Shown: positions 6,805 through 17,486 of the stretch, piece by piece | Position numbering within the stretch: the stretch's first letter is position 1 | Layout: each line of letters starts with the position of its first letter | Assembly (NCBI GenBank): GCA_964475825.1 | Contig: CAYYXT010000003.1 | Span: 96,570-128,569, forward strand | From: an uncultured Nitrosopumilaceae archaeon | GTDB lineage: Archaea > Thermoproteota > Nitrososphaeria > Nitrososphaerales > Nitrosopumilaceae | DNA length: 32,000 nt | Direction: 5' to 3' | Position numbers and translations under genes: made by a program | Notes under the pieces: generated by a model | Told to the model about the DNA's origin: nothing | The model's database searches: none | Seen by the model: only the letters and a program-made list of their open reading frames with translations

Positions 6805-6816
6805 TTACAATTGTAA
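6805..6816. promoter_or_regulatory. Palindromic operator TTACAATTGTAA (perfect) between the divergent Met-rich gene and dsbA-like 1
   Basis: Exact 12-bp palindrome. It lies 41 nt from the minus-strand ATG (6763) and 57 nt from the plus-strand TTG (6874). TATA-like boxes follow on both sides. Confidence 0.7.
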
Positions 6817-6873
6817 AGTATCATAAATAAATATACTAAATAAAAAACATCATCATTAAGGAGACAATGATTT

Positions 6874-7653
6874 TTGGACATAGAAAAAACACCAGATACT
6901 ACAAATGTAATTATAAAAAAATCCACTTTTAATAAATTAATTATTGGTGGGGTAGCAATTGCAATCATCTCTGCATTTTTTGGAGGTTATTTTGTTGGAG
7001 TAAACAGCATAGAGCCAGAACAAATCTACATTCGTAATGCAGAAGATGTTTTAGGCACAACTGAAAACAAGCAAGCAACTAAACCTCAAACTGTTTTGGC
7101 TTCAATAGACGATGATCCAATGATGGGAAATCTAAATGCCCAGATAACAATTATAGAATTTTCTGACTTTCAGTGTCCATTCTGTAAAAGATTCCATAGT
7201 GACACTCTTCCTCTAGTTCAAACAAATTACATTGATACAGGTAAAGTTAGGTTTGTTTATCGAGATTTTCCAATCCAAAGTATCCACCCTAATGCAATGC
7301 CAGCTGCACTTGCAACAGAATGTGCAGACGACCAAGGAAAGTTTTGGCCATACCACGATAAGATATTCCAGAATCAGGGCCAATGGAAAGATCTTGAATT
7401 GATACAAGCAGTAAATTTATTCAAACAATATGCTAGCGAATTACAGTTAAACGAAGATGAGTTTGGAACTTGTTTGGATTCAGGTAAATATCTTGATGAA
7501 GTAAATAATGATCTTCAAGATGGACAAGATTATGGCATTGAAGGCACGCCTGGATTTTTCATAGGAAATGATGAACTAGGTTATACCAAAGTTTCAGGAG
7601 CAAAACCCTATCAATCTTTCCAAACAGTTCTTGATGAGGCACTTGCAAAATGA
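6874..7653 (+). CDS. DsbA-family thiol:disulfide oxidoreductase, membrane-anchored (paralog 1)
   Basis: N-terminal TM anchor and thioredoxin fold with active site FQCPFCKRF. TTG is the first possible start after an in-frame stop. Paralog of 13460..14254. Confidence 0.85.
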   Translation: MDIEKTPDTTNVIIKKSTFNKLIIGGVAIAIISAFFGGYFVGVNSIEPEQIYIRNAEDVLGTTENKQATKPQTVLASIDDDPMMGNLNAQITIIEFSDFQCPFCKRFHSDTLPLVQTNYIDTGKVRFVYRDFPIQSIHPNAMPAALATECADDQGKFWPYHDKIFQNQGQWKDLELIQAVNLFKQYASELQLNEDEFGTCLDSGKYLDEVNNDLQDGQDYGIEGTPGFFIGNDELGYTKVSGAKPYQSFQTVLDEALAK

Positions 7654-7663
7654 GAGATAATCT

Positions 7664-7675
7664 TTACAATTGTAA
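7664..7675. promoter_or_regulatory. Palindromic operator TTACAATTGTAA (perfect) upstream of the BNR-propeller gene
   Basis: Exact match, 41 nt upstream of ATG 7717, followed by TTCTTTAATACA. Confidence 0.7.
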
Positions 7676-7716
7676 TCTATTGTTCTTTAATACATCACCA
7701 ACTTGGAATTGATTAG

Positions 7717-8703
7717 ATGAAAAAATTGCGATCATCAAAATCAAAAAATAAAAAATATGTATTACTTGGAATAGTATCTATCGTAGTCATTGGAGTTATT
7801 GTAAGTTATACGTCAAGTTCGCAAAATAATACGAGTGATCCAAAATCTAAACTCCTAGGATCCTGGATGGACGTACATGGTGTTGGTATGTTTCTTTCAG
7901 GAACTGATGACACGTTATATCTTGCAACCCACAACGGTCTATTCAAAAAAGAGTCAGACGGATGGAAACGAATAGGACAAGATACCGCAGACCTTATGGG
8001 TTTTTCTATTAATTCTAATGACGGAATAATGTACTCTAGTGGACACCCAGCTGCAATGAATGGTAACCTTGGTTTTAGGGTTAGTACTGATAAAGGAAAT
8101 TCATGGACAATGATTTCCAAAGTAAAAGAAAAACCAGTGGACTTTCACGCAATGACTGCAAGTTCAGCACAAAAAGGTTTGATTTACGGCTCACCTGGAG
8201 GAGGTTCTGAACTTTTTGTAACTGTGGATGAAGGTGCATCATGGAAATCACTTACTCCGCCAGACAGAATTATTTCACTTGCTGCAGATCCACTAAATCA
8301 AGACACAGTATACGCAGGAACAGTTTCTGGACTATATGTTAGTGATGACAAAGGACAACAATGGAAGCATGTTGATTCAAGTATAGAAAACGGTGCAATA
8401 ACGGGAATAGGATTTTCATCAGATGGAAAAACTATGTATATATTTTCAACATTAGATGGAAATGGATTAATTGCAATTTCCATTGATGGTGGAAGTACAA
8501 TGGTAAAAACGCAAGGTCAAATTACCAATACAGGAGCCGTGTTTAACTTTGCTCCAGGACGAAATGGAGAAATGTATGCGATAGCAATGGAAAAAGTCTC
8601 AAGTGGCATGGCTGCAAGTGTCTATATGACAAATGATGGGGGAATTACATGGATTCTAGAAGGCACCAATAATTCTGAATTGGCCATGACTAACAATACC
8701 TAA
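7717..8703 (+). CDS. Membrane-anchored BNR/Asp-box repeat beta-propeller protein (sialidase/Ycf48-like fold)
   Basis: N-terminal anchor. Four SxDxGxxW Asp-boxes: STDKGNSW, TVDEGASW, SDDKGQQW, TNDGGITW. Confidence 0.75.
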   Translation: MKKLRSSKSKNKKYVLLGIVSIVVIGVIVSYTSSSQNNTSDPKSKLLGSWMDVHGVGMFLSGTDDTLYLATHNGLFKKESDGWKRIGQDTADLMGFSINSNDGIMYSSGHPAAMNGNLGFRVSTDKGNSWTMISKVKEKPVDFHAMTASSAQKGLIYGSPGGGSELFVTVDEGASWKSLTPPDRIISLAADPLNQDTVYAGTVSGLYVSDDKGQQWKHVDSSIENGAITGIGFSSDGKTMYIFSTLDGNGLIAISIDGGSTMVKTQGQITNTGAVFNFAPGRNGEMYAIAMEKVSSGMAASVYMTNDGGITWILEGTNNSELAMTNNT

Positions 8704-8734
8704 GTTAACAAAAAGGAAGTCTATTGGATTAGTT

Positions 8735-8875
8735 TTATTTTTGGTATTTGCTTGGATTTTTTTCAAAAACGGCTTTACATGATGGGCAGCAAAAATGGAA
8801 TGTATTCCCATTATGTTCTAAAGTTACTGCATTGTGTTCTTCCACTTCCATTTTGCAGACAGGATCTATTTTCAT
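8735..8875 (-). CDS. YHS/TRASH-domain metal-binding mini-protein (46 aa), CopT/CopM-like chaperone candidate
   Basis: Own base-by-base translation: MKIDPVCKMEVEEHNAVTLEHNGNTFHFCCPSCKAVFEKNPSKYQK. This fits the DPVC...FCCPSC...F....P..Y YHS/TRASH pattern. The ORF is hidden antisense to track ORF 8748..8951. Confidence 0.7.
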   Translation of the reverse strand: MKIDPVCKMEVEEHNAVTLEHNGNTFHFCCPSCKAVFEKNPSKYQK

Positions 8876-8914
8876 TGTTATACAAGGTTTGATTCTTCAA
8901 ATAAAGTATGTTGT

Positions 8915-8926
8915 TTACAAATGTAA
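8915..8926. promoter_or_regulatory. Operator variant TTACAAATGTAA (half-sites intact, centre AT changed to AA) between the YHS mini-gene and the regulator gene
   Basis: It lies 39 nt from minus ATG 8875 and 38 nt from plus ATG 8965, with TATA-like boxes on both sides (TTTATTT / ATATAGATAATA). Confidence 0.55.
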
Positions 8927-8964
8927 GATGTATGATATAGATAATAGCTAGCCATAGGATAGCC

Positions 8965-9393
8965 ATGTCGTTTCCTCTGGATGAAACAGATATTGCAATA
9001 CTTGAATCTCTAATTCAGGACGGCAGAAAGTCATTTAGACAGATTTCAAGGGAAATCAAAGTAAGCACACCTACAGTACAGATACGTTATGACAGAATGA
9101 TAAACATGGGAATAATAAAATCAATTTCACCTATATTGGATATGAAAAAACTTGGTATGAAATTAGATCTTAGTAAAACGGATATCAAATCACAAGGAAC
9201 TGCAACTAAAAAACTCAATTCAAATTTACATGTAAAAATAAAATGTGATTATTGTGATAGAAAGATTGCTGAAAAACCTAGCATATTAAAAGTGGCAAAC
9301 ATTCAAAGATTTTTTTGTTGTCCTTCCTGTAAAGTTCTCTTTCAAGACAAATATCAACGAAGAATTAAGGCAATCATGAACTCACAGAAATAA
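8965..9393 (+). CDS. Lrp/AsnC-type HTH regulator with C-terminal TRASH metal-sensing domain (archaeal CopR-like copper regulator)
   Basis: N-terminal LDETDIAILESLIQDGRKSFRQISREIKVSTPTVQIRYDRM (HTH_AsnC). C-terminal CDYC-x20-CCPSC matches the TRASH consensus C-x2-C-x19-22-C-x3-C. Confidence 0.8.
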   Translation: MSFPLDETDIAILESLIQDGRKSFRQISREIKVSTPTVQIRYDRMINMGIIKSISPILDMKKLGMKLDLSKTDIKSQGTATKKLNSNLHVKIKCDYCDRKIAEKPSILKVANIQRFFCCPSCKVLFQDKYQRRIKAIMNSQK

Positions 9394-9408
9394 TTAAAAA
9401 TATTTTGA

Positions 9409-11091
9409 CTATTCTTGTTTTGAAAACTTTTTCTGCTTTACTATTTTAATTCTATTATACACAAATAATGCTACTAGTATTATTATTGCCGCTATTGCAG
9501 TGTTCTGTATTGTATCTTTGATGGCAAATTCTGGTTCAGGGTCAGTTTTCTTTATAGTTGGAGGTAGAATTGGTTTTGGTAGATCTACGTTTATTGTTAA
9601 CGGATAAAGTTTGGATATTGTCATAGTTTTATCAATCTGTTCTGATGCTGAGACTTGAATCATTATCTGATATGTGCCTGATTTGGCATTTTTGTCAACT
9701 GATACATCCAAAGTAGATTCTACATTATTTTCTTGATTCAAGTCAATTATGGAAGGAGTGGCAGTAAAAGAAATACCATTCAATCCCGAATCAGTCATGC
9801 CAACTAGTGAAATATTGATATTGTCTAGTGATGCCACGTCATTGCTATTTTTCAGATTATTTACGATAACTTTTACTTGCTTTGATGTCTCTTTTTCGGT
9901 AAAATCAATTTCTTCTTTGTCAACTTGTATATTAAAAGGAACAGAAATGCTCGTATCTAGGTAACCAATTTTATTTGCTAAAACTTCTGTAAACCACACT
10001 TTCCCATCTTTTGATGCATCAAGATAGACTACCGTAGAGAGTGGACCTGTTGGAACATCATACTCTGTAATGGTACCTGATACGTCAATTTTTGAGATCT
10101 TGTTTCCACCGTGTTGTGCAAAATAGATATTTCCATATTCATCAGTATCTATCTGACTTGGAAGAGTCTGTGGATATAGTGTGTTGGGGGATGTCCATAA
10201 TGATGTATATGTTTTCAAACTAGAATCTAATTCTGAGACAATTACCCTACTTGAGCCATGATCTGATAGAATCAGTTTTTCTACTCCTTTAGAGTCTTTG
10301 AATATTACAATTCCAAAAGGTGAGAAAAAGTCTGGCTTTGGCAGGCTGATCTCAGAAAGATTTGGAAATGTATCTGATTGCATGTTTGTAACATCAATAA
10401 TTAAAACACTATTCGAATAAGTAAGAGTTATCAGTAAAGAGCCCTTTTCATCAAATGCAAGAAATATCGGACCGCTGTTTTCTTTGATTTTATATTCTTT
10501 AATTTCATTTGTCTTTATATCTAAACTTGCAAATTTATCTGAACTTAGTTCTGTAAACCAAATCTTTGATTTATCTGGTGATAAAATTATTCCCATTGGT
10601 CCAGAATTTTCTGTCGGTATATTGATTGTGTCCATTTGTTGATTTTCTATATTGAATTTGCCTATAGAATTGGTTCTTGCATCTGTAAACCATATCATAT
10701 TTCTTGATTCATCATAAATGATATGCCCTCCAGAAAGATTAACAATCACATCTTTTGTATTGGTCTTTTTTAATATATCAAAATTTGAGAATTTTTCAGT
10801 GACTGGATCAAACTTGAAAATTGAACTTGCATTTTGTGTTGCATGATAGATCCAGGCATTTCCAGTTTTATCTGTTGTAATTCCCCTCAAACCAAAGTCA
10901 TCAACGGGAATAGAAATTTCTTTGATGAAATTGCTTTTTTTAGAGTATGTGACAAATTCATCATTGGATATTTCTTGCGCAAAAACATTACTGAATGATA
11001 AAAGTGAAAAAAGAATAACAGGCAGTAGAAATAATGCAGTTGATTGAATTCTAGTATTTTTCAACTTATTTTTCCACCTTATTTCCAGCAT
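9409..11091 (-). CDS. Surface beta-propeller protein, streptogramin-lyase (Vgb)/NHL-like repeats, with C-terminal Ig-like domain and TM anchor
   Basis: Signal peptide. Repeated hydrophobic-W/Y-F-T/A motif blades (MIWFTDARTNSIGKF, KIWFTELSSDKFASL, NIYFAQHGGNKISKI, KVWFTEVLANKIGYL). C-terminal AIAAIIILVALFVY anchor. Paralog of 20552..22123. Confidence 0.7.
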   Translation of the reverse strand: MLEIRWKNKLKNTRIQSTALFLLPVILFSLLSFSNVFAQEISNDEFVTYSKKSNFIKEISIPVDDFGLRGITTDKTGNAWIYHATQNASSIFKFDPVTEKFSNFDILKKTNTKDVIVNLSGGHIIYDESRNMIWFTDARTNSIGKFNIENQQMDTINIPTENSGPMGIILSPDKSKIWFTELSSDKFASLDIKTNEIKEYKIKENSGPIFLAFDEKGSLLITLTYSNSVLIIDVTNMQSDTFPNLSEISLPKPDFFSPFGIVIFKDSKGVEKLILSDHGSSRVIVSELDSSLKTYTSLWTSPNTLYPQTLPSQIDTDEYGNIYFAQHGGNKISKIDVSGTITEYDVPTGPLSTVVYLDASKDGKVWFTEVLANKIGYLDTSISVPFNIQVDKEEIDFTEKETSKQVKVIVNNLKNSNDVASLDNINISLVGMTDSGLNGISFTATPSIIDLNQENNVESTLDVSVDKNAKSGTYQIMIQVSASEQIDKTMTISKLYPLTINVDLPKPILPPTIKKTDPEPEFAIKDTIQNTAIAAIIILVALFVYNRIKIVKQKKFSKQE

Positions 11092-11118
11092 TAGTTATCA
11101 TAAAAAATCCAACGTATC

Positions 11119-11547
11119 CTATTTTTCAAGAAAAACTGAAACTGGCCCCAGAATATTTCCATGCGGATTGATTACTATCTGGATATTTTGTTCATTTGGA
11201 ATTTGGATTTTGTCTTGTCCTAGATATTTCCATGTATAGTAAGTTCCAGGCTCTTGTAGAGTTCCATTCAGCTTGAAATCTTCAAAAAATGAAAACGAAT
11301 CTCCTTTGAGTGCAACTGTCAAAACTTTAGGACTATCGCCACTTGAAACAAATCTAAATTTGTACGTTCCATTTTTGATAGTAAATGTATCTGAAAAAAT
11401 CCCATCCTCGTACAGTTTTGGATCAGCAAGTCTTACATGAAAAATTTTTGTGTTTTCTTTTTTCTCAGGTGATATAAGCGATATGGATGATATGGAAACT
11501 ATAACTGCAATTACAACAATACTTCCAAGAATCAATTTTTTCTTCAA
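11119..11547 (-). CDS. Hypothetical secreted/anchored protein (142 aa)
   Basis: N-terminal hydrophobic anchor and a beta-rich sequence. Lies between the TRASH mini-gene and the propeller gene on the same strand, so probably in one operon. TTG start. Confidence 0.55.
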   Translation of the reverse strand: MKKKLILGSIVVIAVIVSISSISLISPEKKENTKIFHVRLADPKLYEDGIFSDTFTIKNGTYKFRFVSSGDSPKVLTVALKGDSFSFFEDFKLNGTLQEPGTYYTWKYLGQDKIQIPNEQNIQIVINPHGNILGPVSVFLEK

Positions 11548-11615
11548 GTATAATCACTTAATTTTAATAGCATAGACTCTTTTTTCTAGATTCTGATTTA
11601 CACAACAAAATTATG

Positions 11616-11786
11616 CTAGCAGCAACCACCACGACGATCTCTATGACTCTCTTCATTTTGTCTTTGTTGTTCTCTTACTGCAAATTCTTCAGCATGCTGC
11701 TCAGAGCAGAGATATTTTCCGAATCTTTTGACTGCGGTATCTTTTTTGACTTCCACTCCACACATCGGACAATGTTTTTCAAACAT
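11616..11786 (-). CDS. TRASH/YHS-like metal-binding mini-protein (56 aa) with C-terminal GGCC
   Basis: Own base-by-base translation: MFEKHCPMCGVEVKKDTAVKRFGKYLCSEQHAEEFAVREQQRQNEESHRDRRGGCC. Shows the CPxCG...G.YLCSxxH..xF pattern. TATTAAAATA lies 23-32 nt upstream of the ATG. The ORF is hidden antisense to track ORF 11613..11795. Confidence 0.7.
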   Translation of the reverse strand: MFEKHCPMCGVEVKKDTAVKRFGKYLCSEQHAEEFAVREQQRQNEESHRDRRGGCC

Positions 11787-11825
11787 GTTTGGTAATGAAA
11801 CTAGTGCATATTTTAATACAGATCT

Positions 11826-11837
11826 TTACAATTGTAA
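11826..11837. promoter_or_regulatory. Palindromic operator TTACAATTGTAA (perfect) upstream of the minus-strand TRASH mini-gene operon
   Basis: Exact match, 39 nt from ATG 11786. Confidence 0.7.
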
Positions 11838-11878
11838 CATTAATCTTTAGACTAGAATTCAAAATCTATAAGTGTTTT

Positions 11879-11890
11879 TTACATTTGTAA
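11879..11890. promoter_or_regulatory. Operator variant TTACATTTGTAA (centre AT changed to TT) upstream of the Cys-containing membrane protein gene
   Basis: It lies 31 nt upstream of TTG 11922 and is followed by GTATTAAAATAC. Confidence 0.5.
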
Positions 11891-11921
11891 ACTTGTGTAT
11901 TAAAATACTTGGCTAAAACTA

Positions 11922-12272
11922 TTGAAAGTGATTAGTGTGTGGTGTATTGGGTGTAAAAGTCTCTCAAAAAAGAAAATCATTATTTTGGCTTTAGTAACAG
12001 CAGTAGCTGCTGTGGTTCTGTATTATTCATTTACAATAAATCCAGTAACAACACTTGCTATTTTGCCTTTTCTTCTTCCTTTCGTAGGTTGTATCGTAAT
12101 GTGTGGAGTTATACTGGGAGTTGTGTTTCTGGCAGGCCGTTTTTCAAAAAAATCTGATAAATCACATAATTCTTGTTGTACAAGTGAATCAACTGACATG
12201 AGCGAATCTATCACAAAACCAGAAATCAATACAAATAACAAAAAAAACAGTTCGTCTAACTTTACAAAATAA
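11922..12272 (+). CDS. Small membrane protein with Cys motifs (WCIGC, GCIVMCG, SCC); start uncertain
   Basis: Two predicted TM helices with an intramembrane CxxxC and a polar C-terminal tail with CC. The start is TTG 11922, or GTG 11928 or 11937. Confidence 0.5.
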   Translation: MKVISVWCIGCKSLSKKKIIILALVTAVAAVVLYYSFTINPVTTLAILPFLLPFVGCIVMCGVILGVVFLAGRFSKKSDKSHNSCCTSESTDMSESITKPEINTNNKKNSSSNFTK

Positions 12273-12295
12273 TCATATCTGTAAAAATCATTATC

Positions 12296-12307
12296 TTACA
12301 ATTGTAA
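12296..12307. promoter_or_regulatory. Palindromic operator TTACAATTGTAA (perfect) upstream of the rhodanese gene
   Basis: Exact match, 39 nt upstream of ATG 12347, followed by CATATTAAAATA. Confidence 0.7.
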
Positions 12308-12346
12308 ACGACCATATTAAAATACAATACAAATGATATCTATTCT

Positions 12347-13192
12347 ATGAATTATTCTAATCCTGAGGTTTTAGTAGATACTGAATGGGTTTCAAAAAAT
12401 ACACCATCTGAAAAAATACAACTTGTTGAAGTTGATTATGATCCTGAAAACGGATACAGAAAAGGTCACATTAAAGGTGCCACACTAATTTGGTGGAAAC
12501 GTGACATAAACGATCCAATAACCAGAGACATCATTAGTAAAAAACAGTTTGAAGATCTTATGAACAGAAATGGAATTACCGCAGATAGTCAAGTTGTACT
12601 TTATGGGGATTTCAACAATTGGTTTGCAGCATTTGTTTTCTGGGTCTTCAAATATTATGGTCACAAAAATATCAAAATAATGAATGGAGCTAGAAAAAAA
12701 TGGGAGATGGAAAAAAGACCATACACAATAGAAGAACCCAAAGTCACACCCACTGTATATGTTGCTCAGCCGCCAAATGAAGGTCTTAGGGCTTATCTCT
12801 TTGATGTCAAACGTGCACTAGCCAAAAATGACACTGTTCTAGTTGATGTAAGATCACCAAAAGAGTTCACAGGCGAGATAACCGCACCGCCAGAATATCC
12901 AATGGAACATGCACAAAGAGGGGGACATATTCCAGGTGCAAATAATATTCCATGGGCTATGGCAGTAAATGATACTGATGGAACTTTCAAGACATATGAA
13001 GAATTGAAACAAAACTATGTCCCAAAAGGCGTAACTCCTGACAAGGATGTAATCTGTTATTGTAGAATTGGTGAAAGATCCTCGCACAGTTGGTTTGTCC
13101 TAAAGTATCTACTTGGATACCCTCAAGTACGAAACTATGATGGTTCTTGGACTGAATGGGGCAACATGATTGGAAATCCTGTAGAGAAATAA
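12347..13192 (+). CDS. Two-domain rhodanese (thiosulfate/3-mercaptopyruvate sulfurtransferase)
   Basis: Tandem rhodanese domains. The catalytic loop CYCRIGERSS fits the CRxGxR[ST] thiosulfate-sulfurtransferase signature. C-terminal YDGSWTEWG. Confidence 0.9.
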   Translation: MNYSNPEVLVDTEWVSKNTPSEKIQLVEVDYDPENGYRKGHIKGATLIWWKRDINDPITRDIISKKQFEDLMNRNGITADSQVVLYGDFNNWFAAFVFWVFKYYGHKNIKIMNGARKKWEMEKRPYTIEEPKVTPTVYVAQPPNEGLRAYLFDVKRALAKNDTVLVDVRSPKEFTGEITAPPEYPMEHAQRGGHIPGANNIPWAMAVNDTDGTFKTYEELKQNYVPKGVTPDKDVICYCRIGERSSHSWFVLKYLLGYPQVRNYDGSWTEWGNMIGNPVEK

Positions 13193-13390
13193 CTGTTTTA
13201 AAAAAATTCATACATTTTCTATGCAAAATAATGTTCATTGTTGGAATTGAGAAAGACAATTATTAATTGATAGTAATTTTGCACCAACAGGTAATTGCAC
13301 ACTTGCTATTAGCGCTACAGACGGATTGGTAACAAAATCGGTATTTGTGAATATGATGATTAATTGAAAATCAAAACCTCGATTATCACT

Positions 13391-13402
13391 TTACAATTGT
13401 AA
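13391..13402. promoter_or_regulatory. Palindromic operator TTACAATTGTAA (perfect) upstream of dsbA-like 2
   Basis: Exact match, 57 nt upstream of TTG 13460. This is the same spacing as at dsbA-like 1. Confidence 0.7.
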
Positions 13403-13459
13403 TGTATAAGAGATAAATATCCTGATTAAAAAATATTATCATTAAGGAGATAATGGTTT

Positions 13460-14254
13460 TTGGACATAGATGATATAGAAAAAACAACAAATACTGCAAA
13501 TATAACTATAAAAAAATCCACTTTTAATAAATTAATTATCGGTATTGTAGCAATTGCAATTATCTCTGCATTTTTTGGAGGATATGTTTTGGGAAACATC
13601 ATGCCTTTCTCTACAAACATTTTAGAATCTCAAAAACAAAATTCGGATGGCATACCCGTATCCACTATAGTAGAACAAGAGCTTCCAATTGCAAAGACTA
13701 CACCAACATCTGAAATTCCTGTGTATGCAAAATATGTGGGAGCATCTTCTGCTACTATAAATATAATTGAATTTGGGGATTTCCAGTGCCCATTTTGTAA
13801 GAGATTTTTTGATCAAACAGAACCGGAGATCAAAAAAGAGTATATTGATACTGGAAAAGCAAGGTTTTCCTTTATTGGGATAAGTATTACCGGTCCAGAT
13901 TCATTGCCTCTTGCTGCTAGTTCTTGGTGTGCTAATGAGCAAGAAAAGTATTATCAATATCATAATTATATCTACACAAATCAGGGAGATGAAAATTCTG
14001 GTTGGGGAACATATGAAAAAATAAAGATTCTTGCAAAAAACATACCTGATCTTGATATGGAATCATTCAATACTTGTCTGGACAGTAAAAAGTATGAACC
14101 GCGAGTAAACGAACTAACGCAACTCAGTGCAAATATTGGAGTGACAGGAACACCTACAACATTTATCGGAAATTCAGAAAATGGTTACACAAAGATTACT
14201 GGAGCCCAACCGTATGAGGTTTTCAAAAATACCATCGACATGTACATACAATAG
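13460..14254 (+). CDS. DsbA-family thiol:disulfide oxidoreductase, membrane-anchored (paralog 2)
   Basis: FQCPFCKRF active site, the same anchor sequence as paralog 1, and a TTG start directly after an in-frame stop. Confidence 0.85.
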   Translation: MDIDDIEKTTNTANITIKKSTFNKLIIGIVAIAIISAFFGGYVLGNIMPFSTNILESQKQNSDGIPVSTIVEQELPIAKTTPTSEIPVYAKYVGASSATINIIEFGDFQCPFCKRFFDQTEPEIKKEYIDTGKARFSFIGISITGPDSLPLAASSWCANEQEKYYQYHNYIYTNQGDENSGWGTYEKIKILAKNIPDLDMESFNTCLDSKKYEPRVNELTQLSANIGVTGTPTTFIGNSENGYTKITGAQPYEVFKNTIDMYIQ

Positions 14255-14941: not shown

Positions 14942-14974
14942 TACATGTTTTTTGATTTATTTAATGATTGTACT

Positions 14975-14986
14975 TTACAATTGTAA
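14975..14986. promoter_or_regulatory. Palindromic operator TTACAATTGTAA (perfect) between the Zn-ribbon mini-gene and copA
   Basis: Exact match, 33 nt from minus ATG 14941 and 43 nt from the proposed copA TTG 15030. TATA-like boxes on both sides (ATTAAATAAAT / CATATTAATTAT). Confidence 0.7.
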
Positions 14987-15029: not shown

Positions 15030-17486
15030 TTGAAACAAGATGCAAACACTCTGAATGCAGGCATTAGAAAAACTGCCCTAAAAATTGGAGGCATGCACTG
15101 TGCTGGCTGTATAACTGCAATTCAAAACCACATGTCAGATATTGAGGGCATAACAAAATGTGAGGTAAATCTGGCGGCTGAAAAAGCCGTTTTAGAGTTT
15201 GATTCATCATTAATTGATCTAGAGAAAATTGAAAACGCACTAAAAGATATTGGATATTCTACTGTCTATGAAAAATTCTCAGTAAAGATAGCAGCAATTA
15301 CGGATTCCAGTGATTCAGAAAAATTAGAAAAGAGATTACTGGAAATAGAAGGAGTCAAAGAAGCATCTGTTAATTATGGAAATAATCAAGTTGTCATTAA
15401 ATACAATTCTACTCTACTCTCAATTTCAGATCTTAGGAGAATAATTAACAAATTAGGATTTCAAATTTTAAGTGAAGATGACATCGTAACATCAGAAGAA
15501 ATTGAAGCAAAGAAACTAAAAAAACTATTCATCATCGGACTTGTGTTTTCAATTCCTGTCATGTTTCTTGGTTATCCAGAATTTTTTTCATTCATTCCAT
15601 TTGCAGGAACTGGAGTTGCAGCATTGATAATTTTTGTTTGTGCAAGTATAGTCCAGTTTGTTACTGGAAGCAGGTTCTACATTGGAGCATACAGAATAAC
15701 TAAAATGAAGTCTGCAAACATGGATACTCTGGTTGTTACTGGAACTACAGCCGCATATCTATTTAGTGTGTTTAACACATTTCCAACACCTGCTTGGCAC
15801 AACATCTACTATGATGCAGCTTCCATTGTGATAACTTTCATAATTCTTGGTAAGTATCTTGAAAACAAGACCAAGGGAAAGGCATCATCAATAATTAAAA
15901 AGATGTTAGAACTTCAACCAAAGACTGCAAGAATCAGAAAAAATGAAACAGAGACTGAAATTTCAATTGAATTAATCCAGCCTGGAGATATCTTGATCAT
16001 AAAACCCGGTGAAAAAATTCCCGTAGATAGTATAGTAGTTGAAGGTCACTCAGCAGTTGATGAATCTATGATAACTGGTGAATCAATGCCTGTAGAAAAG
16101 AAACCAGGCGATGTTGTGATTGGGAGTACAATAAACAAGGAGGGTGCTCTTTTGGTAAGAGCTGAAAAGGTTGGAAGCGATACAATGCTCTCACAGATAA
16201 TGAATCTTGTTGAAGACGCAATGGGAAGAAAGCCACCGATGCAACGCCTTGTTGACAAGATTGCGGGATATTTTGCAATTATAGTTCTAATTGTTGCCAC
16301 TGTAACATTTGTGTCGTGGTATTTTGTTACCCCGCCTGGAGAACATCATATTGCAGCTGCATTAATTCCAGCAGTAGCCATTCTAGTTGTTGCATGTCCA
16401 TGTGCACTTGGTCTTGCAACTCCAACTGCAGTAATGGTGGGAATGGGGAAAGGTGCCCAGTATGGGGTAATCTTTAAAGGCGGTGATGCCCTTGAGATGC
16501 TCAGCAAAATAAAGATTGCAGTATTTGACAAAACCGGAACTCTTACTGAAGGAAAGCCGCAAGTAATTGATTTGCTATCTTTAAAACCGATTACGCTAAC
16601 AGATGGTAATATTATACCTAATTCAGAAGAAAAATTTTTAGAGTTTGCTGCAATTGCTGAAAAAAATTCTGAACATCCATTGGCAAAATCAATTGTAAAA
16701 AAAGCAAGAGAATTAAATCTTGATCTACAAAACCCAACAGACTTTGTTGCAATTCCTGGAAGAGGTGTTAGGGCAACATACAACGGAAACACAATACTCG
16801 TTGGCAGCCCAAAACAGATAGAATTAGAAGGAGTTGAGATCAGTACAGCAGAAGAACATATCTCACAATTCCAACAGGAGGGAAAGACTGTCGTACTTGT
16901 AGCCCTTAACAGTCAATTAGTCGGATTGATTTCATTGCTGGATTCTCCAAAACAGAGTGCAAAGTCTGCTATTATGGCATTAAAAGACAACGGAGTGGAA
17001 GTAGTGATGCTTACGGGAGATAACAAAAGAACAGCTGCCACAATAGCTAATGAGCTTTCCATAGATAGAGTGATTGCCAATGTAATGCCATCTGAGAAGG
17101 TTAATGTGATAAAAGAATTACAGAGTGGTGGAAAAAAGGTTGCAATGATTGGGGATGGCATAAATGACGCTGCAGCAATAATGCAATCCGATGTTGGTAT
17201 CGCAATAGGAAGTGGTACAGATGTTGCAATAGAATCTGGCAAAGTTATTCTTTTAAGAGATGATCTAAACAGTGTAGTAACTGCCATAGAGATAAGCAAA
17301 AAAACGGTTGGTAAAATAAAACAAAATCTAATTTACGCATTTGCATATAATACAATACTCATACCAGTTGCAGGTATTGGTTTGCTTTACCCAGCTTTAG
17401 CAGGGTTGGCAATGGCTGCAAGCTCTGTTTCTGTCACAAGCAGCTCATTGCTTCTAAAAAGATGGTCTCCAAAGAGGCAAAAGTAA
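15030..17486 (+). CDS. copA: Copper-translocating P1B-type ATPase
   Basis: HMA domain GMHCAGC, TM CPC motif (VACPCALGLATP), phosphorylation site FDKTGTLT, SEHPLA, and hinge GDGINDAAA. The track start 14952 reads through the promoter/operator. I prefer the in-frame TTG at 15030, but the start is uncertain. Confidence 0.95.
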   Translation: MKQDANTLNAGIRKTALKIGGMHCAGCITAIQNHMSDIEGITKCEVNLAAEKAVLEFDSSLIDLEKIENALKDIGYSTVYEKFSVKIAAITDSSDSEKLEKRLLEIEGVKEASVNYGNNQVVIKYNSTLLSISDLRRIINKLGFQILSEDDIVTSEEIEAKKLKKLFIIGLVFSIPVMFLGYPEFFSFIPFAGTGVAALIIFVCASIVQFVTGSRFYIGAYRITKMKSANMDTLVVTGTTAAYLFSVFNTFPTPAWHNIYYDAASIVITFIILGKYLENKTKGKASSIIKKMLELQPKTARIRKNETETEISIELIQPGDILIIKPGEKIPVDSIVVEGHSAVDESMITGESMPVEKKPGDVVIGSTINKEGALLVRAEKVGSDTMLSQIMNLVEDAMGRKPPMQRLVDKIAGYFAIIVLIVATVTFVSWYFVTPPGEHHIAAALIPAVAILVVACPCALGLATPTAVMVGMGKGAQYGVIFKGGDALEMLSKIKIAVFDKTGTLTEGKPQVIDLLSLKPITLTDGNIIPNSEEKFLEFAAIAEKNSEHPLAKSIVKKARELNLDLQNPTDFVAIPGRGVRATYNGNTILVGSPKQIELEGVEISTAEEHISQFQQEGKTVVLVALNSQLVGLISLLDSPKQSAKSAIMALKDNGVEVVMLTGDNKRTAATIANELSIDRVIANVMPSEKVNVIKELQSGGKKVAMIGDGINDAAAIMQSDVGIAIGSGTDVAIESGKVILLRDDLNSVVTAIEISKKTVGKIKQNLIYAFAYNTILIPVAGIGLLYPALAGLAMAASSVSVTSSSLLLKRWSPKRQK

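Follow-up and report, generated by a model that had tools for sequence, protein, structure and literature searches.

Copper enzymes underlie the energy metabolism of ammonia-oxidizing archaea. The cop cluster of Saccharolobus solfataricus comprises the regulator CopR/CopT (SSO2652), the TRASH chaperone CopM/CopT and the ATPase CopA (Ettema et al. 2003/2006; PMC7830388). In Pyrococcus furiosus, CopR (PF0739) recognizes TTNNCAWWWTGNNAA directly 5' of the transcription factor B recognition element (BRE) at many copper-induced promoters; it lies between the TBP/TFB sites of the divergent genes copR and copA, of which it represses the former and stimulates the latter (PMC7830388). 'CopT' genes were also noted in Nitrososphaera viennensis, where the regulation of the Cop genes was called an open question by the authors (PMC7785015); this was the only mention of CopT genes encountered, and nothing specific on TRASH or YHS domains was found in the literature on ammonia oxidizers. 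In Firmicutes, the cop box of CopY/CopR is TACAnnTGTA and the sites of Lactococcus lactis CopR read GTTTACAATTGTAAAC (PMC7253601). Here, a divergent gene pair is described from a 32,000-nucleotide (nt) stretch of contig CAYYXT010000003.1 of an uncultured Nitrosopumilaceae archaeon (the window): a 142-amino-acid (aa) regulator with helix-turn-helix (HTH) and TRASH domains and a 46-aa YHS mini-protein, whose genes are separated by a spacer carrying a 12-bp palindrome. No published archaeal description of this operator was found, and the sole match for the 12-mer was the bacterial CopY/CopR paper (PMC7253601). Genes, domains, conservation, operator placement and co-distribution were observed directly, and the pair probably belongs to a Cu(I)-responsive cop module of the CopR/CopT-CopM-CopA type, dispersed as a regulon in a Nitrosarchaeum (an ammonia-oxidizing archaeon), for which P. 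furiosus CopR is the closest mechanistic precedent.

The pair and its spacer are laid out as follows:

8735..8875, minus strand: gene of the 46-aa YHS/TRASH-clan mini-protein (open reading frame (ORF) and Pfam YHS), encoding MKIDPVCKMEVEEHNAVTLEHNGNTFHFCCPSCKAVFEKNPSKYQK
8876..8964: spacer between the divergent genes, 89 nt, giving a start-to-start distance of 90 bp
8896..8906, minus strand: CTTTATTTGAA, TATA-like box of the putative mini-gene promoter, centred ~26 nt from the ATG
8915..8926, no strand: operator TTACAAATGTAA, common to both divergent promoters and 8 nt from each TATA-like box
8935..8947, plus strand: ATATAGATAATAG, TATA-like box of the putative regulator promoter, centred ~24 nt from the ATG
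8965..9393, plus strand: gene of the 142-aa CopR/CopT-type regulator (ORF and Pfam), with the C-terminus ...KCDYCDRKIAEKPSILKVANIQRFFCCPSCKVLFQDKYQRRIKAIMNSQK

Coordinates and sequences thus match the divergent pair of an HTH+TRASH regulator and a YHS/TRASH mini-protein that the initial annotation had proposed, and when the 89-nt gap was re-measured the palindrome again lay 39 nt from the mini-gene start and 38 nt from the regulator start. The spacer is symmetric (TATA-like box, 8 nt, TTACAAATGTAA, 8 nt, TATA-like box); this order is kept in all 11 orthologous loci that were aligned or scanned, as is the 39-nt distance from the operator to the mini-gene start. Nine aligned orthologous spacers have variable start-proximal ends and three conserved blocks: an invariant TTCAAATAAAG, which is CTTTATTTGAA on the mini-gene strand; an invariant G-TTTACAAATGTAA-GAT, which is the operator with its flanks G-T...GAT; and a nearly invariant T(A/T)TAGATAAT(A/G)G, which is the TATA-like box of the regulator. 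The two TATA-like blocks would represent back-to-back promoters with the operator abutting both BRE positions. Because the TATA-like centres are only ~24–26 nt from the start codons, the mRNAs of the mini-gene and of the regulator are probably leaderless. Across the accessory island in which the pair resides, 10 promoters have their TATA-like box in the same place with respect to the operator.

Searches with hidden Markov models placed both proteins above the Pfam curated cut-offs for YHS/TRASH and HTH_AsnC models, in line with the domains first read from the sequence. The regulator matches HTH_AsnC-type (E 9.8e-13, 48.1 bits, cut-off 27) and HTH_24 (E 1.2e-12) as well as Arc_trans_TRASH PF08394 (35.2 bits, cut-off 27) and TRASH_HVO_1752_C (35.0, cut-off 27), with an AsnC-type winged HTH at ~5–52, a flexible linker at ~54–83 and the TRASH domain at ~90–132. 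The TRASH cysteines are arranged as C94-x2-C97-x20-C118,C119-x2-C122; in a 15-sequence alignment of the family the C94/C97/C118/C122 pattern and the HTH core are invariant and the HTH recognition region DGRKSFRQISRE.KVSTPTV is almost unvarying. In the AlphaFold2 (AF2) model, the three-helix HTH and the TRASH domain are confident and linker residues 54–83 have a predicted local distance difference test score (pLDDT) below 50; the HTH superposes on Lrp/AsnC HTH structures at 1.0–1.4 A over ~50 residues. The RAM (ACT-like) domain of full-length Lrp/AsnC proteins was found neither by Pfam (AsnC_trans_reg/RAM) nor in PDB matches, which end at ~residue 67–98, and the AF2 model agrees. The regulator is therefore of the CopR/CopT type (HTH_AsnC plus TRASH) and not a full Lrp protein, since it has both domains expected of that type, an N-terminal AsnC/Lrp winged HTH and a C-terminal TRASH domain of the form C-x2-C-x19-22-C-x3-C. 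Its 659 homologous clusters are named only 'AsnC family transcriptional regulator', and exactly two Arc_trans_TRASH regulators are encoded in the host genome. Assignment of the organism to Nitrosarchaeum follows from the names that members of the protein clusters carry. (Below, G000 is the window's own genome, the other G numbers are Nitrosarchaeum genomes and L numbers are loci.) As a side observation, a metagenome-assembled genome (MAG) labelled 'Candidatus Saccharibacteria bacterium' carries an HTH-TRASH regulator of the ammonia-oxidizer type (49% identical) with an exact TTACAATTGTAA 43 nt upstream (L072, CAZYLF010000005.1); this is probably a mis-binned thaumarchaeal contig.

The mini-protein is a stand-alone YHS/TRASH domain with Cys ligands, scoring 49.2 bits (E 5.3e-13, cut-off 30.3) against YHS PF04945 and 32.1 bits (cut-off 27) against TRASH_HVO_1752_C; both proteins of the pair also have matches to the TRASH-clan models zf-FCS and ATPase-cat_bd. 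In an alignment of 16 homologues D4, P5, C7, C29 and C33 do not vary, and C30 hardly does. The canonical first knuckle of TRASH domains, C-x2-C, is absent from the mini-protein, which has D4-P-V-C7 instead (the YHS variant), and it is accordingly a member of the YHS subfamily rather than a canonical four-Cys TRASH protein. It is a candidate CopM-like Cu(I) chaperone or buffer with D4, C7, (M9), C29, C30 and C33 as candidate ligands. Its AF2 model (pLDDT 89.8) consists of a short beta-hairpin followed by two helices, an order repeated by the C-terminal unit of the regulator model. In a fold search, the mini-protein model weakly matched L24e, a MYM TRASH domain and the YHS segments found in diiron hydroxylases (best E ~1e-2), which fits the assigned fold without being decisive, and a sequence search of the PDB found neither a standalone YHS protein nor an HTH-TRASH regulator.

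The 46-aa frame is a real gene under purifying selection, as its pattern of change among orthologues indicates. Variable sites are distributed 9/5/19 over the three codon positions, the pairwise ratio of non-synonymous to synonymous substitution rates (dN/dS) of the window copy against orthologues is 0.07–0.13 and length changes occur by whole-codon insertions or deletions only, i.e., the coding-type substitution that had been expected of a conserved frame; synteny with the regulator is likewise kept in the orthologous loci that were compared. Orthologue clusters in the 16-sequence alignment are 78–87% identical to the mini-protein. A six-frame search recovered copies with 84–87% identity in 3 of 24 other Nitrosarchaeum species genomes, and more exist in several MAGs. 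That the mini-gene is unannotated is true for DNA identical to the window and not for the family: a public contig matches window 6915..13536 with 100% identity, and there the mini-gene is uncalled, falling in a gap between a propeller gene and the regulator, whereas at least one orthologue is named 'YHS domain-containing protein' by NCBI. The exact 46-aa sequence was not found in a collection of 15 billion proteins, where the exact regulator sequence is present, from NCBI. The antisense 67-aa ORF at 8748..8951 (plus strand), described from the outset as a decoy, does exist; it is open only in this genome, with 1–2 stops in each of 10 orthologous loci, and was rejected as a gene. A second antisense frame over the mini-gene has no stops in most loci, as often happens on the strand opposite an AT-rich gene. 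Separately, a third YHS mini-protein paralogue (54 aa, ~40% identical; G000:C2:81417-81551, L003 1480-1644) occurs in nearly all genomes of the genus. It adjoins an asparagine-synthase-like gene and has neither operator nor regulator nearby, and for these reasons it probably has a different role.

The mini-protein and the TRASH domain of the regulator are homologous (15 of 36 residues identical, tblastn E ~1e-4). The shared metal-binding module claimed for them holds for the C-terminal knuckle, FCCPSCK in both, and fails for the first knuckle, which is DPVC in the mini-protein versus CDYC in the regulator. Module scores are 113–127 between the mini-protein and other mini-proteins, 144–157 between the TRASH domain of the regulator and those of other regulators, and 69 within the pair. 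Since each module groups with its own subfamily, the identity of FCCPSCK is a family feature without trace of local duplication, and a recent duplication of the cysteine module within the pair was ruled out.

The operator links the pair to the rest of the island. In the window, 14 matches to the palindrome with at most one mismatch were found versus 2.7 expected (none of 100 shuffles reached 14), and eight of them are exact; the whole 1.69-Mb genome has 18 exact copies versus ~4.7 expected, eight of which are contained in an 8.2-kb part of the window. All eight island operators are located 6–10 nt 5' of a TATA-like box and 37–43 nt from a start codon, or 57 nt when a leader bearing a Shine-Dalgarno sequence lies between. 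Outside the island three exact operators are promoter-like, preceding a third DsbA paralogue, a BNR-propeller paralogue and the core DsbD-YHS-thioredoxin operon, so the regulon reaches beyond the window; the seven remaining genomic copies look like intragenic chance matches. (The operators before the third DsbA-like gene and the BNR-propeller paralogue are at G000:C2:160716 and G000:C10:33585, respectively.) Relatives of the regulator were scanned in one genome per species, which gave 298 loci, and the best 80 were analysed, from Nitrosarchaeum, Nitrosotenuis, Nitrosotalea, Nitrosopumilus and other Nitrosopumilaceae. In 67 of these 80 loci the 150 nt preceding the regulator gene contain an exact TTACAnnTGTAA, which in 63 is 31–46 nt from the start codon. 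Such placement is an autoregulation signature, with binding predicted from it; the operator would belong to the regulator family, and binding of the regulator to its own and to the cop promoters is predicted as part of an explanation that is, as a whole, quite probable.

The island pump and the remaining exact operators of the window are the following:

14975..14986, no strand: copA operator, exact TTACAATTGTAA, followed after 9 nt by the TATA-like ATTAATTATC; 43 nt to an in-frame TTG
15030..17486, plus strand: copA, coding for a Cu(I) ATPase of the P1B-1 type that has two HMA domains at its N-terminus (Pfam E1-E2_ATPase, Hydrolase, 2x HMA)
6805, 7664, 11826, 11879, 12296 and 13391 (span 6805..13402), no strand: six other exact operators, each 6–10 nt 5' of a TATA-like box

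The longest copA ORF, from a TTG at 14952, would enclose its own operator (14975-14986) and TATA-like box, and the TTG at 15030 is probably the start. With copA at 14952/15030..17486, the ATPase is indeed ~6 kb away as first reported: it begins 5.6 kb past the regulator stop with nine or so genes between, and the adjacency of regulator, chaperone and CopA was not seen in the window. The translation contains CPC, N-x6-YN-x4-P and M-x2-SS, a signature of Cu(I)/Ag(I) P1B-1 pumps in the established P1B classification. No standalone HMA chaperone was found in G000. The genes behind the six other operators encode a Met-rich YtkA-like protein, two DsbA-like proteins, a BNR propeller, an operon with a 56-aa Cys protein, a small membrane protein and a rhodanese. 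The two DsbA-like genes (window 6842-6990 and 13428-13585) have a common leader, ...cattaaggaga(c/t)aatg(a/g)tttTTGgacataga, with a GGAG Shine-Dalgarno sequence and a TTG start that the leaderless-looking promoters of other island genes do not have. The 56-aa Cys-rich ORF at 11616-11786 (minus strand), whose start is 39 nt away from an exact operator, does have a gene call on the identical public contig L034; its sole Pfam match, to prokaryotic metallothionein, is weak (E 0.004). It is the first gene of an operon that also encodes a 142-aa protein and a Vgb-lyase-like propeller of 560 aa.

Tighter arrangements exist in relatives. In two Nitrosotenuis MAGs (L049 3499-6432, L052 3500-6417), the regulator, the operator and the YHS mini-gene are followed by a copA with an N-terminal YHS domain, that is, with the adjacency of a cop cluster, and in Nitrosarchaeum G004 (L127, G004:C3:39700-42600) the regulator and operator face a copA carrying a fused YHS domain. 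The initial likening to the Sulfolobus cop logic of an HTH+TRASH regulator, a TRASH-only protein and CopA therefore stands, as these relatives show the parts side by side. An island-type regulator (>90% identity) is present in six of the seven genomes of the genus with an island-type CopA and in none of the 21 CopA-less genomes screened, the CopA-less G042, G043 and G046 lying outside that screen; being related, the genomes do not count as independent samples. As in the window, a single contig of G001 and of G041 carries both the regulator and copA at a distance of ~6–7 kb. Another contig of G000 carries a core copy of the system, with operator, DsbD_TM membrane protein, 45-aa YHS protein, small thioredoxin and regulator, and in most Nitrosarchaeum the core regulator is divergent from the DsbD_TM-YHS-thioredoxin operon. 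The pair of the window is thus an accessory second copy of the regulator/YHS system in its host genome, and the regulator-YHS association is older and wider in the genus than the association with the pump.

From these observations we infer DNA binding, the identity of the metal, the sign of regulation and the partner of the mini-protein. A regulator dimer most likely binds the 12-bp palindrome TTACA-WW-TGTAA midway between the back-to-back promoters, so that the shared operator would serve both the regulator's own gene and the divergent mini-gene. The same protein would control copA and about eight other transcription units of the ~12-kb accessory island through the equal operator-TATA spacing; with an operator before copA and before the other units, a classical cop operon would here be dispersed as a regulon. 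Cu(I) bound to the TRASH thiolates may alter the contact of the DNA-bound regulator with TFB/TBP. The analogy to P. furiosus CopR favours a regulator that activates the mini-gene and copA and represses its own gene, and simple derepression as in Thermococcus onnurineus would be equally allowed. The mini-protein would bind Cu(I) through C7/C29/C30/C33 and serve as a cytoplasmic copper carrier or buffer.

Several observations weigh against this explanation. The recognition helix of the paralogous regulator on contig C10 is almost identical, so either of the two proteins may occupy a given site. Because the regulator does not have the RAM oligomerization domain of Lrp proteins, the octamer-wrapping model of P. 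furiosus CopR may not transfer to it. The fold of the mini-protein differs from the HMA domains of the island CopA, and direct like-with-like docking on the pump is therefore not implied. Moreover, no P-type ATPase (PF00122) was found in five Nitrosarchaeum genomes of 99% or higher completeness (G024, G002, G010, G005 and G003); all five keep a core-type YHS mini-gene, which in G024 (locus L024) is inside a DsbD_TM/45-aa YHS/small thioredoxin operon, and G024, G002 and G010 also have the operator and a homologous regulator beside it, neither being seen within the ~1.5-kb flanks of the mini-gene in G005 and G003. The ancestral output in the genus was therefore not copper export, and the mini-protein is not necessarily a pump chaperone. 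It has to be considered, then, whether its partner is the TRASH sensor and not the pump, i.e., whether it passes Cu(I) to the regulator by thiolate exchange, or competes for or withholds it, and, being made from the divergent promoter of the sensor, tunes the set-point of the switch through feedback, with the CopZ-to-CopY relay of Enterococcus as model. Such a role, which we regard as possible though rather less than even in probability, would fit the TRASH-clan fold and identical FCCPSCK knuckle common to both proteins, the island CopA having HMA domains and no YHS, the pump-free genomes with YHS mini-genes just described, and the occurrence of a YHS mini-gene in the unit divergent from the regulator in 31 of the 80 family loci. 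Set against it are the YHS unit that adjoins or is fused to the Cu-ATPase in Nitrosotenuis and G004, the classical signature of a chaperone-to-pump relation, and the absence of any sign of pair-specific co-evolution, the TRASH domain of the regulator scoring 69 with its own mini-protein and 70 with the core-locus mini-protein of another genome.

It is unlikely that the signal is something other than copper, either another thiophilic metal (Ag, Cd, Zn or Hg) or thiol/disulfide stress, with the Cys4 TRASH domain acting as structural zinc site or redox switch. The regulon is indeed rich in thiol-redox genes (the island encodes a rhodanese and two DsbA-like proteins, the core operon DsbD_TM and thioredoxin), the TRASH-fold relatives L24e and MYM fingers bind Zn, and the core system exists without any metal pump; however, the island pump has the Cu(I)/Ag(I) P1B-1 signature and HMA domains, a Met-rich YtkA-like secreted protein is under the same operator, characterized HTH-TRASH regulators respond to copper (PMC7830388) and the Dsb genes are explicable by disulfide damage from copper stress. 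Less probable still is a reading in which another factor (such as the core paralogue on contig C10 or an unrelated protein) binds the palindrome and the island regulator has other targets. The two Arc_trans_TRASH regulators of the genome with their near-identical recognition helices would allow it, and the bacterial CopY/BlaI family, which is unrelated, uses the 10-bp core TACAnnTGTA as its operator too (PMC7253601), but the palindrome accompanies regulator genes of the family in 67 of the 80 loci, across several genera, and is present at every island orthologue. The idea that a CopY-like protein is the real binder was rejected, no such protein being found in the genome, where the sole Penicillinase_R-type match scores 23 bits and is without the Cys motif; the regulator itself has no PF03965 match. 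Cross-talk between the two paralogous regulators is likely, and it would refine and not refute the proposed Cu(I)-responsive module.

The pair amounts to a compact copper-regulation unit, an 89-bp spacer, a 12-bp site, a 142-aa sensor and a 46-aa metal protein, that is conserved across Nitrosopumilaceae, and its uncalled 46-aa gene exemplifies a systematic annotation gap. Persistence of the regulator and YHS protein in genomes free of P-type ATPases points to a copper-handling role of YHS mini-proteins beyond the feeding of efflux pumps. If the mini-protein does act on the sensor, it would be a free-standing copy of the sensor fold that sets the threshold of a whole regulon, which would explain why regulator and YHS protein are retained together in Nitrosarchaeum without a metal ATPase and would give archaea an equivalent, built on TRASH domains, of the relay from CopZ to CopY in bacteria.

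With respect to known systems, the S. solfataricus cop cluster resembles the window in its regulator with HTH and C-terminal TRASH domains, its small TRASH-fold protein and its P1B Cu-ATPase; this and the other comparisons with the CopR proteins of Saccharolobus, Thermococcus and Pyrococcus were made by published description and not by sequence alignment. Unlike in S. solfataricus, the genes of the window do not form one cluster, copA being ~6 kb off and tied to the pair by the operator alone, the small protein is of the YHS subfamily with DxxC instead of CxxC, and the pair is an accessory second copy. N. viennensis is likewise an ammonia-oxidizing archaeon with HTH-TRASH regulators, which there adjoin copA and chaperone genes; no operator is given for it and its chaperone is CopZ (HMA), whereas for the window comparative genomics defines an operator and the small protein is of the YHS type (PMC7785015). 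As for bacteria, the archaeal TTACAnnTGTAA contains the Firmicutes cop box TACAnnTGTA, i.e., the same operator core, and CopY/CopZ systems similarly join a Cys-rich metal-sensing tail on a winged-helix protein with a small chaperone able to feed the sensor. The folds differ (AsnC type versus BlaI/MecI type), as do the metal motifs (TRASH versus CxCx4CxC), CopY systems work with bacterial transcription machinery, and the cop-box resemblance is probably convergence or coincidence. Closest in mechanism is P. furiosus CopR, an AsnC-type HTH plus TRASH protein with a semi-palindrome TT..CA(W)nTG..AA directly 5' of the BRE that also lies in the spacer between the regulator and its divergent target; the start-to-start distance is 90 bp in the window versus 96 bp between the transcription start sites of P. 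furiosus copR and copA, and the motif has 12 bp (TTACAWWTGTAA) versus 15 bp (TTNNCAWWWTGNNAA). Unlike P. furiosus CopR, for which an octamer was reported, the regulator of the window has no His-rich tail and no RAM-like domain was detected in it; the divergent partner is the mini-protein in the window and copA in P. furiosus, whose chaperone is of the HMA type. Placed among these systems, the pair is a real and fairly ordinary member of the known archaeal cop design.

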